Notes under the pieces: generated by a model | Told to the model about the DNA's origin: nothing | The model's database searches: none | Seen by the model: only the letters and a program-made list of their open reading frames with translations | Program-made: the position numbers and the translations under genes | UHGV virus genome: UHGV-0209512 | DNA from: a virus | Reading direction: 5' to 3' (one strand) | DNA length: 59,753 bases | Part shown: one piece after another, positions 11,985 through 57,671 of the stretch | Numbering within the stretch: position 1 is the stretch's first letter | How the letters are laid out: every line of letters begins with the position of its first letter

Positions 11985-11988
11985 CAAT

Positions 11989-12008
11989 AAAGGGCCGAAA
12001 GGCCCTTT
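11989..12008. terminator. Bidirectional rho-independent terminator AAAGGGCC-GAAA-GGCCCTTT
   Basis: Perfect 8-bp stem with GAAA tetraloop, flanked by A-run upstream and T-run downstream; lies between convergent genes 11760..11984 (+) and 12011..14347 (-). Confidence 0.6.
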
Positions 12009-12010
12009 AT

Positions 12011-14347
12011 TTATTTGCTTAAGTCTTTGAAAACACTCTCAATTGACTCGTCTATATACCATCCCAACCCCCTGAAATTACGCTTTAACGCATCCTCACG
12101 TGTGACTGGGACGAGTGCTCCCATATCTACAAGTTGTTTGATAGTGAGGTCTGTTGCAGTACCTGCTCCCATCCTGTGATTCTTGAATGCTGCTAACCCG
12201 TAGGTTCTGCGTGTGATAGTTGCCTTCGGAATAATACCGTCAACTCGCAGCTCCTTACGATCACATGCAATTTTACCGCCAAGATAGTCTTTGCAGACCT
12301 GACAGATAGCCTTCACACGCGTTTCATCATCGCCGCCAATAGTACCTTTTTCCCATGCATTGATCATGATGTCCTGTCCGTGCGTAACAAAATCTACCGC
12401 CCATTGCATGTGATTAGGCTGAACGACAGGATTGATCCAGTTTTCCCCAACTGCTAACAGGGATGCAAGACGCAGAGCTTTAAGGTGCGCACGGTTCCAC
12501 GGCTGACGAATAGCTTCGTCTTTAGTTGCGTTAATGTGTTCATCACATAACAAGTTAAACTCCCGTTCAATCCTTTCCGCTTCAGGGCTTAACTGGACAG
12601 TAACGGTCTGGAACTTTGCCATTGTCACCAACGTGTGGTTAACGAGATGGCAGACCATGTCCTTTAATTGTTGTGGCATTGTGATTTCAGGATTTTCGTT
12701 TGCAGGAACACGATCCCCTTCATATTGCACAATGTGGAAACGGGACAAGAAACCGTCTTCCATCATTTCACGGGTTAATGCTTCAAAGAATGTGTCCGGT
12801 GTTGTTTCGCCCAGCACGCTAAACGCCACCCCGTCCATCGTTTTGGTATTATTAGCCTTATCAGAATATCCGATACCGCCAACAACATCCATAGCACCAG
12901 ATTTTTGATACACATCTGTGATAGTTTGCTTCAGGGTGTAGTTTGCAGTGCCAGGTTGAGCTGTTGCCATACCTTTAATGGTTTTACCGAACTCGCCGTT
13001 AATATTCACAAACGAAGTGTGATCCGCAAAACTTTTACGCAAGGCAGGGCCGGAAGCATAGTTAGTCATGTCTACAAATTCATGCACTTGCGGTAATTGC
13101 TCGCCCACTTGCTTACAAATATAACTGGGCCCAGCGTGAAGCATTTCTTTACCCACACCTGATCGGGCAATAAGCACAAAGTAACCGTTTAACCCTGTGT
13201 TGGTGATAGTATTCCACACCTTGCCGCATACGCCGGATAAGAATGCTAAAGATGCAGTGATTGCAATTTCTTTTACCGGACGCTGCGAGGCCTTGTAGAT
13301 ATACTTCGCAAGCTCACCAGCAAGTCCCGGCGGCCATTCAATAGCTGTTGCATCAATGGACGTACTTTCTGCAACTACTATTTCACCGGACGGGCTGACT
13401 GTGGTTACAGGCGTTTCCGTTACCTGCTGCATTGCACTGTGTGCGGCTTGCATACGGGCAGCGTAATCCCGCGCCAGCGCCGCTACGTTTTCCTGGGCAA
13501 TGCGCTCACGCTCCATACGACCGCGGCACATGCGCAAACAACGGTCAATATGAACATTGTTCTTGTTAGCCTTCTCACGTTTGCCCAGTGCGCTGTAACG
13601 GAACAGACGACGACATTGCTCATTACTTTCTGTGTAGAATGCATACATAGAAATAAGGGCAAGGTCTGCTTCAGACTGGGAAGGGAATCCCATTTCAACC
13701 CATTCGCCATTGAAGAGGCGTGCATACTTATCGCCGTTGTCTGCTTCAAGGGCACGCTGGTGAATGGTTGCATCGTCTTCTACCGGATCTTTTTCTACCA
13801 GTTCAATTTCATATGTCTTGCGCTGAAGATCAATTTCATTCACAAGCATAGTAAGGTAATGATCACGCTCTGCAACTGGTTTGTTATAGACAGGATTACC
13901 CGTGCAGATAATAAAACGCTCCTGACTATAAACCTCGACACCATCACGTCGGCGTCCTTTACCGATATTTCCTCTTAACCACAGGTGGACACCCAAGCCT
14001 GACCGACTTACTTCAGTGTAAGTATCGAACGCAGTCATGATCTGTTCGAAGCGACGCAACTGTTCCGGCGTTGTGTGCTTCTTGGGATCCGGTTCATTGG
14101 TTGCGTTCTTCACATCCAGGTCGATGCAGGTGAACGGGTCTTGCGCAGTAAGCACAAAGCCAATATAAGGTTTGTTGAAATGAGCGGCACAACCTTTGGC
14201 AGCTTCAAACGTCATAAGCATATCCGGATCGGTAACATCCGCAGCCATCAGGCGCCCGATATCGTTGTCCCACACAAGCGGCTTTTTGTCCGCATCGGCG
14301 ACAGCCCATTGTGGGAAAGCTTTAATTTCAGCGGGAAACAATTCCAT
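12011..14347 (-). CDS. Replication protein with N-terminal primase-polymerase-like domain (778 aa)
   Basis: N-terminal region with GFVLTAQDPFTCIDLDVKN resembles prim-pol catalytic motifs; central P-loop-like ARSGVGKE is not a canonical Walker A; adjacent to the AT-rich repeat region. Confidence 0.5.
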   Translation of the reverse strand: MELFPAEIKAFPQWAVADADKKPLVWDNDIGRLMAADVTDPDMLMTFEAAKGCAAHFNKPYIGFVLTAQDPFTCIDLDVKNATNEPDPKKHTTPEQLRRFEQIMTAFDTYTEVSRSGLGVHLWLRGNIGKGRRRDGVEVYSQERFIICTGNPVYNKPVAERDHYLTMLVNEIDLQRKTYEIELVEKDPVEDDATIHQRALEADNGDKYARLFNGEWVEMGFPSQSEADLALISMYAFYTESNEQCRRLFRYSALGKREKANKNNVHIDRCLRMCRGRMERERIAQENVAALARDYAARMQAAHSAMQQVTETPVTTVSPSGEIVVAESTSIDATAIEWPPGLAGELAKYIYKASQRPVKEIAITASLAFLSGVCGKVWNTITNTGLNGYFVLIARSGVGKEMLHAGPSYICKQVGEQLPQVHEFVDMTNYASGPALRKSFADHTSFVNINGEFGKTIKGMATAQPGTANYTLKQTITDVYQKSGAMDVVGGIGYSDKANNTKTMDGVAFSVLGETTPDTFFEALTREMMEDGFLSRFHIVQYEGDRVPANENPEITMPQQLKDMVCHLVNHTLVTMAKFQTVTVQLSPEAERIEREFNLLCDEHINATKDEAIRQPWNRAHLKALRLASLLAVGENWINPVVQPNHMQWAVDFVTHGQDIMINAWEKGTIGGDDETRVKAICQVCKDYLGGKIACDRKELRVDGIIPKATITRRTYGLAAFKNHRMGAGTATDLTIKQLVDMGALVPVTREDALKRNFRGLGWYIDESIESVFKDLSK

Positions 14348-14368: not shown

Positions 14369-14650
14369 TTAGCCATAGATCTGTTTCCTCCGCCATTCTT
14401 CATATGCTGAATTATTTGCGTCATATACTTCGCAAGCGTCTTTCATGCTGTCGTACAGTCCAAGGAAGGTTCGCCTTGTTTCCCCGCCTGCATCTACCCA
14501 TGTTAATCGGGCAAGCCATTTACCCGTTTTGTAATCGAAAGTAACGCCCTCACGCCCGCTCACATTTTCCCGAGGTACTCGCGGTTTCCGGCGTGCAAGC
14601 CCGCGACCTTTGAAATTACTGCCCGGGACAGTCCTGCACTTACGACCCAC
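14369..14650 (-). CDS. AP2-domain DNA-binding protein (about 93 aa)
   Basis: GVTFDYKTGKWLARLTW ... FLGLYDSMKDACEVYD matches the AP2 pattern; no in-frame ATG, proposed GTG start at 14648-14650 preceded by GGAGG with 6-nt spacer (track ORF starts at TTG 14668). Confidence 0.45.
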   Translation of the reverse strand: MGRKCRTVPGSNFKGRGLARRKPRVPRENVSGREGVTFDYKTGKWLARLTWVDAGGETRRTFLGLYDSMKDACEVYDANNSAYEEWRRKQIYG

Positions 14651-14855
14651 GACCAACCTCCGACACAATCCGACCAGCGTGCAACATTAAGACGGGCTCT
14701 GCAACTTCGCGGACATAAACGTAAACGTTAGCAATTTTAACTTCGCCAGGCAGCTTACCGCGTAGCGAACATAATTTGCGACGGCTAAGACCGAAGCGCT
14801 TTTCGATTTCTGATGTGGTTATGTATTTAAGATCAAATTCTTTTTGATGGTCCAT
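14640..14855 (-). CDS. Helix-turn-helix DNA-binding protein (71 aa)
   Basis: ATG 14853-14855 preceded by GGAGG (5-nt spacer); ITTSEIEKRFGLSRRKLCSLRGK looks like an HTH; its stop overlaps the AP2 gene start. Confidence 0.5.
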   Translation of the reverse strand: MDHQKEFDLKYITTSEIEKRFGLSRRKLCSLRGKLPGEVKIANVYVYVREVAEPVLMLHAGRIVSEVGRGS

Positions 14856-15011
14856 ACCTACCTCCTAACAGCACTATACACAATACATACCGGCGCAGCC
14901 ACAATTATTCCACCTGAAGTTATGATGTGAGAGGATTGTTAATATATAACCACATGTGATGGAAAGTTTTGGGTAGGAATAGTTGGTGCTCCACAGTTTG
15001 CGCAATGTGAC

Positions 15012-15052
15012 CGAAAGTTTTGTGAGTTTTGCGAAGTTTTGCGAAGTTTTGT
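15012..15052. repeat. Tandem phased repeats (G/C)GA(A/G)GTTTTG, four copies at 9-10 bp spacing
   Basis: AGTTTT at 15016, 15025, 15035 and 15045 (a further copy at 14965); inverted copy CAAAACTCGCAAAA near 15450. Confidence 0.5.
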
Positions 15053-15242
15053 GGTGCCACTGTTGCTAAAAACTTTAATAAAAACAATAAGTTGGTGCAG
15101 TAAGTTTTTGCGTTTTACCCCAAAACGCATTTTTTACCCTAACACCCAAATCCCGACTGTTAGTAAAAAACGTATATAAATCAATAATATAGATACTAAA
15201 TGAATAGTGAATGGAATGGGTAGAAATCCAAATGATGGAAGT

Positions 15243-15257
15243 GGAATAAATTATTCC
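15243..15257. promoter_or_regulatory. Perfect 15-bp palindrome GGAATAA-A-TTATTCC (candidate operator)
   Basis: 7-bp arms around a single central base, read directly from sequence. Confidence 0.45.
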
Positions 15258-15525
15258 TACTTGATAGAATAATGGAATCGGTACTCCAGAGCGCAAAAAC
15301 CTAAAACTTTCAGTCAACAGACTAAAAACGGATAGAAACTAAAAGTTAATAAGTAATACCATAAATATATATAAAATAAGGATTTATTAGTAATGTATAT
15401 AGTACCTATTTGTATTATTTGAATGTTTTTGGGTCATTGTTAAAAAGTCCCAAAACTCGCAAAAAGTGAAAGAATACAATTCGTGACAGGATTGTTAATG
15501 GAATAAGGTGTATGGATATACAGTA

Positions 15526-15570
15526 TTATTCCAGATTCCGGAATAATTGGAATAATGGAATAAATTATTG
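15526..15570. promoter_or_regulatory. Second cluster of the GGAATAA/TTATTCC motif (inverted repeat plus near-palindrome)
   Basis: TTATTCC (15526-15532) and GGAATAA (15540-15546) around palindromic ATTCCGGAAT; then GGAATAA-A-TTATTG at 15557-15570. Confidence 0.45.
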
Positions 15571-15684
15571 AACTATTGTGATCGGAAGGTATATCAAGCT
15601 ATAATGCGCTTAATCGCGGGATATTGGAGGAGGACTTTATTGCGCGGTTAACCGGACCAGTAGGAGGACTGGCCCGGAAGTAGT

Positions 15685-16011
15685 TTAGAGCTGTACAGGT
15701 GTGAAGTGGGCTAGCGTATCGTCGGACATAATACCCGACAGTTTTTCGCATACCCAGTCGGACCAAATGCTGTCCGGTTCCTGGCGATGCACAAACCAGA
15801 TTTCGGATGTGCCTTCTTTGCGCATCGGTTGCACTTCTACAAGGAACTTGTCCTGCATAAGGCGGGTGAAGCATACGCTGGTCATTGGGACCGGCTTTTC
15901 GTGTTTATTGTAATAAGGAGTCAGTAATTTATTTCCGAAGTTGGCAACTTCATAAACTGTTCCTTTGCGAAGACCTCTGATGTCTGTGTAAGAGCGGATA
16001 AATGTTTTCAT
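15685..16011 (-). CDS. Hypothetical protein (108 aa)
   Basis: ATG at 16009-16011 with GGAG upstream; first gene downstream of the AT-rich region. Confidence 0.5.
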   Translation of the reverse strand: MKTFIRSYTDIRGLRKGTVYEVANFGNKLLTPYYNKHEKPVPMTSVCFTRLMQDKFLVEVQPMRKEGTSEIWFVHRQEPDSIWSDWVCEKLSGIMSDDTLAHFTPVQL

Positions 16012-56069: not shown

Positions 56070-56603
56070 TTACAGGCTATAGTTTACGTGGCATTTCGAA
56101 GTTTCTTCGATGGTGCATTCTACAAGTTGAACACCATGTTCGTCAAGCAGTTGCGGTCCAATTACGTTAACCATATATGCAGCCAGATTTTCAGCTGTCG
56201 GGTTGAACGGTAAAGATACCAGCGAACCTAAGAAATGAAGGTTATCTTCCTGCTCTGTCATATCATAACCTTGAGCAGCATCACGACAAGTGAGATCTTT
56301 CAACCCTTGCATTAGCGAGTCTTTTTCCCAGTGCAGGAACTTATGATCCCAGTTATCTTCCAGCCACTGACAGAGCGTAGTTTTAACCACACTAAAATCG
56401 ATAACTCTCCCAACGTCGTCCAACTTACCTTCAACGGAGAAGCCTTTCGCGCTCGGGATGTAGTTTTCGCTTTCTATACGTTTCGGTGCAACCTTAAAAT
56501 GAAACTTATAGTTGTGACCGTGAAGATGACGACACTTGCTTTCGTGTCCTACAACACGATGTCCAGCACAAATTTCATGTGAACGAATTACTGTATAGCT
56601 CAT
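56070..56603 (-). CDS. queD: 6-carboxy-5,6,7,8-tetrahydropterin synthase (QueD-like, PTPS family)
   Basis: N-terminal EICAGHR ... HGHNY fits the PTPS/QueD metal-binding pattern; 177 aa, longer than typical QueD. Confidence 0.7.
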   Translation of the reverse strand: MSYTVIRSHEICAGHRVVGHESKCRHLHGHNYKFHFKVAPKRIESENYIPSAKGFSVEGKLDDVGRVIDFSVVKTTLCQWLEDNWDHKFLHWEKDSLMQGLKDLTCRDAAQGYDMTEQEDNLHFLGSLVSLPFNPTAENLAAYMVNVIGPQLLDEHGVQLVECTIEETSKCHVNYSL

Positions 56604-57190
56604 TTTAATACCTCTTTAGACTGTTCAATTTCTAACGCACGCTGTGCTGACGCAATAATGTCTTTCAAATCTTCTACCAGATTCTTATGACCGCGTTCAC
56701 CAGGCTGCAACGCCTTTTTAATCAAATGTTGTAAAGCTGGGTTAGTTGTCTTCCAAGCTTCCAAGACATCATACACGTCCACGATGCATTTTACAACATT
56801 CCCATTTTGATCTTTACCATAAATAACTTTCTGATATTTATTCATGGGAATTTTAGACGGTTCGTATTTCGTAAAAACCGCACCATTAAATGTATTACTT
56901 ATACTTATTCCAGAAGAAGGTTGATGGTACAATCCGGAGCGAGTGTTTTCGCTAGCCTGTTTGACGTAATCTTCCGTAACGATATATCGCCAAGCTATAA
57001 TATCTTGAACTTTATAAGGGCTATTCTCATCCATAGCTGAACGCCCTTCCATAGCCCAATCCCATCCATGTAATAGATTCTTAACGTGTGTGCCGTTGCG
57101 CAAACGAACTTCAAACTTCTCATTACGAAGAAAAATAGGCATTCCTTTACCGTCGTGTTGGTGCCAAATTTTATTCAAATTATCTTTCAT
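56600..57190 (-). CDS. Uncharacterised protein embedded in the 7-deazaguanine cluster (196-209 aa)
   Basis: ORF 56600..57229 (TTG start); alternative ATG 57188-57190; no recognisable motif; lies between queD and a membrane protein gene. Confidence 0.5.
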   Translation of the reverse strand: MKDNLNKIWHQHDGKGMPIFLRNEKFEVRLRNGTHVKNLLHGWDWAMEGRSAMDENSPYKVQDIIAWRYIVTEDYVKQASENTRSGLYHQPSSGISISNTFNGAVFTKYEPSKIPMNKYQKVIYGKDQNGNVVKCIVDVYDVLEAWKTTNPALQHLIKKALQPGERGHKNLVEDLKDIIASAQRALEIEQSKEVLK

Positions 57191-57191
57191 T

Positions 57192-57671
57192 TTACGCTCT
57201 CGCTGTACGTGAATGAACTTCGTAAACAACCCAAAGGATAGCGGACGCTGTGAACTTACTTAAGCTCATTGCCACCATAGATCCTGGATTAACAATACCT
57301 ATAATACTTAAGAACACAATGGAGTCAATCGGTACAGCTACTAAAGAGCTGATAAATACTCGTTGATGAAAAGGCTTCTTGGTGACCGTGTATACTACAT
57401 AATCAGCAAACTCACTAAGCGCAAAAGACGCAACGGATGCTACTACAACCGCAGGATCTCCGAACACCCAGCTAAGGACGCAACCAACAATCATTGCAGG
57501 GATGACGCCTTTGCCAGCGTTACGCTGTGCGTAATCACGCAAGACAAAGATAATGCCTACAAAGAAAGCCATCATTGGGACTACGCCGAGTGGCGTATTA
57601 AGCATTGGAAGGTAGGAAAAACCCAGGTTTACGAATGTAATTGCAGCCAGATAAGCAACAATAAATTTCAT
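57192..57671 (-). CDS. Polytopic membrane protein; candidate queuosine-precursor transporter
   Basis: ORF 57192..57761 trimmed to ATG 57669-57671 after GGAGAA; about five hydrophobic segments; transporter assignment is inferred from the neighbourhood only. Confidence 0.35.
   Translation of the reverse strand: MKFIVAYLAAITFVNLGFSYLPMLNTPLGVVPMMAFFVGIIFVLRDYAQRNAGKGVIPAMIVGCVLSWVFGDPAVVVASVASFALSEFADYVVYTVTKKPFHQRVFISSLVAVPIDSIVFLSIIGIVNPGSMVAMSLSKFTASAILWVVYEVHSRTARA

Follow-up and report, generated by a model that had tools for sequence, protein, structure and literature searches.

The closest described counterparts of the locus discussed here are replication origins at which a primase–helicase recognizes short repeated sequences. 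The locus is a non-coding gap of 829 bp in UHGV-0209512, a 59,753-nt stretch of viral DNA that was analyzed whole and that we call the window; its source is a coliphage of Seuratvirus (Queuovirinae). Seuratviruses and other Queuovirinae have been studied for their 7-deazaguanine DNA modification and are represented in the BASEL collection. Our literature search found no description of the gap region, nor of a Seuratvirus origin or early regulatory circuitry. What drew attention to the gap was an array of about 12 copies of the pentamer GGAAT, nine of them strongly conserved. On balance, we lean toward reading this array as the sites of a small phage DNA-binding protein, set in the probable origin and promoter region of a replication operon.

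Several kinds of described system bear on that reading. In satellite phage P4, the alpha protein is a primase–helicase whose C-terminal DNA-binding domain recognizes repeated octamers, laid out in two separated site clusters, ori and crr. AlpA-type genes are commonly found upstream of P4-type primase genes, and AlpA shares the MerR/Xis fold with lambda Xis, P2 Cox, RdfS and BldC, proteins that bind cooperatively to several short repeats, often in the service of promoter regulation. The homing endonuclease I-TevI acts as an autorepressor through its own DNA-binding domain. Lastly, the SaPI Reps carry a C-terminal winged helix that reads penta- or hexanucleotide iterons, present in 6 to 12 copies split around an AT-rich center, and they are reported to need no accessory component (PMC9371898).

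The GGAAT array in the gap

A preliminary description of this DNA had singled out a perfect 15-bp palindrome and a second cluster of related sequence about 300 bp away, and had taken the pair for operators of a dimeric protein that could support looping. The palindrome, GGAATAAATTATTCC at 15243–15257, is exact, with no mismatches. The cluster at 15526–15570 likewise reads as it had been given, TTATTCC-AG-ATTCCGGAATAA-TT-GGAATAA-T-GGAATAA-ATTATTG, although it is only part of an array of about 12 sites. An exact 14-nt direct repeat, TGGAATAAATTATT, occurs at 15242 and again at 15556, with 314 bp between. A 7-N-7 palindrome alone is within chance expectation: perfect palindromes with arms of 7 nt and a spacer of 0 to 1 nt number 10 in the window, against a mean of 8.4 in dinucleotide shuffles.

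The clustering is another matter. The window contains 19 copies of GGAATAA where 8.4 are expected, and eight of the 19 fall within the gap, where 0.27 would be expected; GGAAT itself occurs there 12 times against 2.1. Not one of 2000 shuffles of the gap reached eight copies of the former or 12 of the latter, and no other 830-bp stretch holds more than three copies of GGAATAA. The motif is not spread through the genome at similar frequency, its clustering in the gap is far beyond chance, and the observation stands. Copies of GGAATAAT outside the gap (7943, 49529, 49922 and 58982, minus strand) turn out to combine a start codon with its ribosome-binding site (…GGAATAATG…) where small minus-strand genes adjoin; these are translational context, not operators. 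A second motif cluster near 49–50 kb was also considered and dismissed, there being only scattered copies within coding DNA.

The repeating unit, which we call motif 1, is TGGAAT(AAT), 8 to 9 bp long with the consensus TGGAATAAT, and its roughly 12 copies run over 14904–15564 in direct and inverted orientation. The 12 GGAAT cores, with their strands, lie at 14907-, 14976+, 15213+, 15243+, 15253-, 15274+, 15500+, 15528-, 15535-, 15540+, 15549+ and 15557+. They make up the following sites, compared with those of the Salmonella phage STP-SP5 and other relatives.

14904–14912, minus strand: motif-1 site TGGAATAAT, also the extended -10 of the predicted promoter of the leftward operon; STP-SP5 keeps the position as TGGAATAGT
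14975–14983, plus strand: weak motif-1 site AGGAATAGT, not conserved in STP-SP5
15212–15220, plus strand: weak motif-1 site TGGAATGGG, not conserved in STP-SP5
15242–15258, no strand: palindrome of two inverted motif-1 units, (T)GGAATAA-A-TTATTCC(T); STP-SP5 and the metagenomic locus L025 keep GGAATAATTTATTCC
15273–15281, plus strand: motif-1 site TGGAATCGG, inside the conserved block GATAGAATAATGGAATCG
15499–15507, plus strand: weak motif-1 site TGGAATAAG, degraded in STP-SP5 and Dru_SM1
15525–15564, no strand: right cluster of five motif-1 units (15528-, 15535-, 15540+, 15549+, 15557+) with 8–9-bp spacing

The region around the array is 97 to 98% identical to phages RCIP0359, ECP2304, KS_W4, GottfriedDienst and Skure, and the gap is equally well preserved (97–98%) among 10 coliphages. 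STP-SP5 is the more telling comparison, its gap being only about 68 to 72% identical. Broken down by element, identity to STP-SP5 is 68% over the whole gap, 80% in the motif-1 9-mers, 80% in the 11-mers of a second repeat family (motif 2, below), 87% in an AT-rich core and 65% in the rest. Nine of the 12 GGAAT cores are intact in STP-SP5, including the palindrome and the whole right cluster; the center base of the palindrome is flipped, so that it matches the window's site on the opposite strand. By our own arithmetic, a pentamer should survive intact about 12% of the time at 65% per-base identity, and nine out of 12 is far above neutral. The right cluster is identical, or nearly so, in STP-SP5, Dru_SM1 and L025; type-B phages have unrelated sequence instead.

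Since the GGAAT sites exceed what chance would give, keep to a single regulatory gap and are better conserved than the background in a diverged relative, a protein very probably binds them. That much of the preliminary description survives. What does not is the pair of dimer operators, for the array consists of about 12 units of monomer size. Nor does it look like a lambda-type operator pair, with a few dimer-length dyads overlapping promoters: the array contains a single perfect dyad, which overlaps no predicted promoter.

Motif 2, the AT-rich core and the primase–helicase

The gap heads a leftward operon, the layout of which is as follows.

11986–12011, no strand: bidirectional terminator hairpin closing the operon
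12011–14347, minus strand: primase–helicase, 778 aa, the putative reader of motif 2
14369–14650 (or 14668), minus strand: stand-alone AP2-type protein, 93 to 99 aa, one candidate reader of motif 1
14640–14855, minus strand: 71-aa helix-turn-helix (HTH)-like winged-helix protein of MerR/Xis fold, homologue of Seurat gp61, the other candidate reader of motif 1
14856–15684, no strand: the 829-bp non-coding gap, probable replication origin and control region of the HTH–AP2–primase/helicase operon
15685–16011, minus strand: 108-aa gene on the other flank of the gap

Reading leftward from the gap, the order is HTH, AP2, primase–helicase and terminator, with a convergent gene beyond the hairpin. The operon is thus self-contained and headed by the gap, which must therefore carry its promoter. 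The gap holds no credible open reading frame (ORF) and matches no known RNA family in Rfam. What it does hold, interleaved with the GGAAT units, is motif 2, RAGTTTTGYG, with six copies against 0.19 expected. At least nine motif-2 sites lie on both sides of an AT-rich core, in a region upstream of the initiator gene rather than downstream.

14963–14973 and 15014–15053, plus strand: motif-2 sites, one in the first interval and four in tandem in the second, in 9–10-bp phase; iteron-like
15294–15311, minus strand: two motif-2 sites directly left of the core (CGCAAAAACCTAAAACTTTCAG), which become TATAAAC in phages with the other primase allele
15340–15424, no strand: AT-rich core, 20 to 22% GC, candidate DNA-unwinding element
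15425–15459, both strands: motif-2 sites directly right of the core (GTTTTTGGG on plus, CCCAAAACTCG on minus)

On each side of the core the order outwards is motif 2, then motif 1. Within the core, TAAATATATATAAAATAAGG is invariant across all coliphage relatives. Two repeat families interleaved around an AT-rich core are what one sees in a control region with an iteron-type origin, not in a simple operator pair.

Comparison with relatives ties motif 2 to the primase–helicase. Motifs were typed in about 20 related loci overall, 16 of which are tabulated phage loci, and they fall into these types.

Motif 1, GGAAT: the window clade and STP-SP5
Motif 1, ACCCTATA (CCCTATA): Seurat, CAjan and slur01; yong3 more loosely
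Motif 1, CCACTATA (CACTATA): WildeMaa, CSP1, Greed, SA126VB, Dru_SM1, KurtStettler and SeppeHuegi
Motif 2, AGTTTTGYG: the window clade, STP-SP5 and the WildeMaa group
Motif 2, AGTTTATA: the Seurat group, the KurtStettler group and yong3

A third motif-2 type, (G/A)TTTTATA, stands beside the core in L025 and in a second metagenomic locus, L026. The motif-1 and motif-2 types assort independently; CACTATA, for example, is found with either of the tabulated motif-2 types. Each motif-1 type includes a single perfect dyad; that of Seurat is TATAGGGT-A-ACCCTATA, that of WildeMaa CACTATAGTG. The AT-rich core and a predicted rightward promoter, P+, are invariant across relatives.

The primase–helicase consists of an NrS-1-type prim-pol domain, an MCM-like AAA+ helicase and a C-terminal winged helix, and its best sequence match in the Protein Data Bank (PDB) is SaPI5 PriRep, 7OLA. 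In phages with AGTTTTG sites it is at least 97.9% identical to that of the window (91% in STP-SP5), against about 77% in phages with AGTTTATA. The difference between the two alleles is concentrated at one end: residues 1 to 300 are 99% identical, the helicase part 71% and the C-terminal domain (residue 660 to the end) 42%; in blocks of 40 residues, the helicase scores 52 to 87% and residues 680 to 778 only 23 to 55%. Some 900 bp of near-identical DNA separates the diverged part of the primase gene from the gap, which makes simple linkage a poor explanation of the pairing between motif 2 and primase. L025 and L026 add a third C-terminal domain, 95% identical between the two loci and 37 to 47% to the others, joined to a helicase part that is 79 to 87% like the AGTTTTG allele. 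In KurtStettler, a motif-2 site within a WildeMaa-like CACTATA block has changed from AAAGTTTTGGGTTTTTGG to AAAGTTTATAAGTTTACGG. Across the roughly 20 loci, then, three types of primase C-terminal domain correspond to three types of motif 2, with yong3 a loose fit.

We also screened every ORF of the window by tblastn against the non-structural genomes of STP-SP5, WildeMaa, KurtStettler and Seurat. The primase was the main ORF to follow the motif-2 pattern; the only other real ORF to do so, at 56600–57229, did so more weakly. That ORF (minus strand, 209 aa) lies in the 7-deazaguanine (queuosine) cluster and has a primase-like two-allele pattern, with identities of 81 and 89 versus 67 and 68%, which may reflect different types of DNA modification rather than the origin. 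A homology search with the C-terminal 139 residues of the primase alone returned no match.

From the covariation, and by analogy with the SaPI Reps, we infer that the C-terminal winged helix of the primase–helicase reads motif 2, and the gap is probably an iteron-type origin of the SaPI PriRep and P4 alpha kind: it combines a winged-helix primase–helicase, short iterons on both sides of an AT-rich region and covariation between iteron and domain. On this model, the enzyme would bind the iterons flanking the core and load itself there. The GGAAT units would be a second, independently swappable set of sites for a small DNA-binding protein of the same operon. One GGAAT unit coincides with the -10 of the predicted promoter of the operon itself, which suggests autoregulation through binding there; binding at the right cluster, beside the -35 of P+, would modulate that promoter; and binding at GGAAT sites might also shape the nucleoprotein complex at the origin.

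The looping raised in the preliminary description can be judged against this anatomy. The palindrome group (15212–15281) and the right cluster bracket the iterons and core, and in the window, RCIP0359, Skure and STP-SP5 the last unit lies 314 to 316 bp, about 30 helical turns, from the palindrome. Bridging between the two is geometrically plausible at 314 bp, or some 30 turns. In relatives of the CCCTATA or CACTATA type, all motif-1 sites lie on one side of the core, so bridging across it is not shared by the family as a whole.

The remaining elements of the gap are these.

14931 to 14904, minus strand: best leftward candidate promoter, CTCACA-16-TGgAATAAT, the extended -10 of which is a GGAAT unit
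14927–14943, plus strand: 17-bp element GTGAGAGGATTGTTAAT, with a second copy at 15483–15499; direct repeat GTGA(G/C)AGGATTGTTAAT
15576–15605, plus strand: P+, a predicted sigma-70-like rightward promoter, TTGTGA-18-TATAAT, invariant in all relatives
15646–15672, no strand: G+C-rich hairpin where the upstream leftward operon ends; the matching stretch is annotated as a terminator in SA126VB

The right cluster (15525–15564) stops 12 bp upstream of the -35 of P+. In STP-SP5, Dru_SM1 and locus L072, P+ faces homing-endonuclease (HNH-type) genes; in the window no ORF lies ahead of it, and what follows is a hairpin and the 108-aa gene in antisense. The 17-bp element belongs to neither repeat family. 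It is conserved in STP-SP5, L019, L020 and L025, the promoter-proximal copy being kept even in the diverged L019, L020 and L025, and a scan of viral and metagenome collections with the 17-mer gave only chance matches or close relatives. A terminator-like hairpin at 15109–15129 (plus strand), TGCGTTTT-ACCCC-AAAACGCA followed by a T-run, is built from two inverted motif-2-like halves; Skure keeps the stem with an altered loop (GGGGT), and the hairpin is not conserved in STP-SP5.

Candidate readers of the array

The neighboring HTH and AP2 proteins, which the preliminary description had proposed for binding assays, are the two best candidates for reading the motif-1 sites. The reader is probably one or the other, with about even odds between them; a third factor is also possible.

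The HTH protein is 67% identical to Seurat gp61 and has a homologue in every relative. Its model adopts the winged-helix fold of the MerR N-domain or excisionase type; profile searches of Pfam, NCBIfam and PDB gave no match, and the only hit was PHROG 11967, of unknown function. The AP2 protein scores 21.7 bits against Pfam AP2 (PF00847), below the gathering cutoff of 33.3, and its homologues score 20 to 25 bits, also below it. It matches HNH-endonuclease PHROGs, a match that is consistent across HNH-AP2 endonuclease relatives, and to judge from these matches it looks like a derivative of the DNA-binding C-terminal end of HNH-AP2 homing endonucleases. We had thought the ORF a decaying relic of such an endonuclease, an idea withdrawn after comparison with a stand-alone homologue (L020:593-835). 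The two proteins are 77% identical, with non-synonymous (pN) and synonymous (pS) divergence of 0.135 and 0.85, respectively, which indicates strong purifying selection. Scanning viral and metagenome collections with the AP2 protein produced only chance matches or close relatives.

Phages of the CCCTATA and CACTATA types have as the first gene of the operon one that is absent from the window, encoding a gp62-like protein of 242 to 260 aa (Seurat gp62, PHROG 27223, function unknown; L004:426-1208, L009:391-1137, L026:2469-3224). A resemblance of its C-terminal part to AP2 was considered and dismissed, hhalign giving it a probability of 0.2. Some relatives also have a small conserved ORF of 71 to 74 aa between HTH and primase (L011:2701-2916, L020:825-1049), 58% identical between KurtStettler and L020. 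In Dru_SM1, a complete HNH-AP2 homing-endonuclease ORF (L067:2427-2951) opens with the 16 residues that begin the primase (MELFPAEIKAFPQWAV), from which it follows that the element entered the primase gene at its 5' end and duplicated its start.

One possibility, which we hold tentatively, is that the 71-aa MerR/Xis-fold protein specifically reads GGAAT, as an array-binding autoregulator or an architectural protein like Cox, Xis or BldC. This would be a special case of the reading we prefer. The motif-1 type follows the HTH class in all 16 tabulated loci; the HTH protein was the sole ORF in the unbiased proteome screen to score high in STP-SP5 and low in the three non-GGAAT genomes (83 versus 42, 41 and 58); its predicted fold is that of repeat-array binders; and it is the first gene after a promoter whose -10 is a GGAAT unit. 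On the strength of the 16 phage records and the screen, we had taken it for the reader. Then the metagenomic loci L025 and L026 broke the rule, and the claim was downgraded. L025 has 11 GGAAT cores, palindrome and right cluster included. Its HTH shares just 37% identity with that of the window, yet its nearest relatives are still GGAAT-type HTHs (43%). L026 carries CCCTATA sites with a CACTATA-type HTH, 73% identical to that of WildeMaa and with the same proposed reading stretch. The right cluster of Dru_SM1, an orphan, accompanies a CACTATA-type HTH; its arrival by co-conversion with the rightward 109-aa endonuclease-like gene was an explanation weakened by L072, which has the same gene without the cluster. 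L020, too, has a GGAAT half-site with an HTH only 50% identical. The alternative, equally tentative, is that the stand-alone AP2 protein, a domesticated HNH-AP2 end, reads GGAAT, with the unrelated gp62-like protein that replaces it in the operon reading CCCTATA or CACTATA in type-B phages. GGAAT sites are confined to lineages with an AP2-type or weaker homing-endonuclease-like protein: the window clade, STP-SP5 (two AP2-type proteins), Dru_SM1 (the complete HNH-AP2 endonuclease), L020 (where one half-site was seen at the palindrome position in a partial view at a contig edge) and L025. None of the 13 loci without any such protein has them, among them L072, which shares Dru_SM1's rightward gene. 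The gp62 clades follow the split between CCCTATA and CACTATA even in L026, where the HTH does not; there the gp62-like protein is closest to Seurat's. Selection on the AP2 protein speaks for this assignment as well. Ranged against it are its sub-threshold Pfam scores and the retention of nine of 12 sites in STP-SP5 though the AP2 proteins there are only about 30% identical, and the association could be hitchhiking with homing endonucleases. Bolder, and unlikely as it stands, is the proposal that Seuratvirus origins consist of two separately swappable, interleaved site sets, the accessory array here being read by a domesticated AP2 protein recruited to regulate, site-specifically, origin-proximal promoters or origin firing, with homing endonucleases at the edges shuffling modules among co-infecting phages.

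Could the units be something other than the sites of a phage protein? That they are promoter-type elements, or sites of a host protein of H-NS or Fis type, rather than operators, is improbable. The consensus TGGAATAAT does make an extended -10 (TGnAATAAT), as in the predicted operon -10 at 14912 to 14904; all three versions of motif 1 contain a -10-like hexamer (AATAAT, TATAAA, TATAGT); the AT-rich center of the palindrome looks like targets of H-NS or Fis type; and L025 retains its sites despite divergence of both phage candidates. Yet there are twelve copies in both orientations at 8–9-bp spacing, mostly without a -35 partner, and a promoter scan gives five hits against 4.1 in shuffles, no enrichment. 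The gap contains no DnaA box TTATCCACA (at most one mismatch) and no IHF core consensus, and to our knowledge none of the sites of ArgR, RcsAB, Fis, H-NS or Lrp fits the GGAAT units well. The homogeneous, lineage-specific versions, CCCTATA and CACTATA, argue instead for a variable, sequence-specific reader. Least probable is that the repeats have no function of their own, being products of slippage or duplication, or remnants of homing-endonuclease targets spread by gene conversion. Both ends of the gap do carry homing-endonuclease genes or relics, several in all, in a locus that is strongly mosaic, but the GGAAT cores are conserved well above their surroundings in STP-SP5 and L025, every relative has analogous arrays of different sequence in the same place, and the spacing between palindrome and cluster is held within 2 bp (314–316).

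Several points weigh against the reading of the array as the sites of a small phage protein within an origin, beyond the discordant HTH loci above. The AP2 domains of GGAAT-bearing phages are only 25 to 45% identical, that of yong3 is 42% identical to the window's without a single GGAAT site, and the partner in L025 is only weakly HNH-like and not detectably AP2. In several phages homing endonucleases border the gap on either side, so associations can be produced or imitated by gene conversion, and some of ours may be hitchhiking rather than function. The global minimum of the cumulative GC skew falls at 14914, by the left edge of the gap, and the global maximum at 48980; the minimum lies about 3 kb from the switch in gene orientation (about 17.9 kb), not at it, but gene orientation confounds skew, and this is weak evidence for an origin. 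AT-rich DNA resembles promoters and unwinding elements alike.

The locus beside known systems

Set beside the lambda operators OR and OL, the window shares one perfect dyad, a related cluster some 300 bp away and sites beside promoters. It differs in having a monomer-size unit, an 8- to 9-mer in both orientations and about 12 copies, with one true dyad; it encodes no repressor of the cI or Cro type, and in its relatives one side of the core is free of sites. I-TevI is a precedent for a homing-endonuclease module at a promoter-near operator, and in the window the AP2 protein stands alone and the GGAAT clusters abut promoters. There the likeness ends: I-TevI belongs to another fold and family, the array far exceeds one operator in size and AP2 binding is putative. 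If the stand-alone AP2 protein does read the accessory array, a DNA-binding module of a selfish element would have been domesticated as a regulator; if it does not, this would be an ordinary operator and iteron region, useful mainly for annotation and phage engineering.

The MerR/Xis-fold array binders share their fold with the model of the window's HTH. Unlike them, the HTH protein belongs to no sequence family, it comes from a lytic phage with no integrase context, and the assignment of its sites is contradicted by two or three loci. With P4 alpha the window has in common a primase–helicase with a C-terminal DNA-binding domain and two separated clusters; in P4 both clusters are the same repeat bound by alpha, whereas the GGAAT clusters of the window do not follow the primase allele.

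SaPI PriRep (PDB 7OLA) comes closest. It too joins a primase, an MCM-like AAA+ helicase and a C-terminal winged helix in one protein, and SaPI origins likewise have short iterons beside rep that flank an AT-rich center and are specific to the winged helix of each element. The window's prim-pol is NrS-1-like, and its candidate origin lies upstream of the operon, where that of the SaPIs lies downstream of rep. The window also has a second, independently assorting family, GGAAT, interleaved with the iterons. The region offers a concrete candidate origin and a pairing of iteron and winged helix in three natural specificity types. Origins of the SaPI PriRep and P4 alpha kind are already known; what sets this candidate apart is the interleaved, lineage-specific accessory array.

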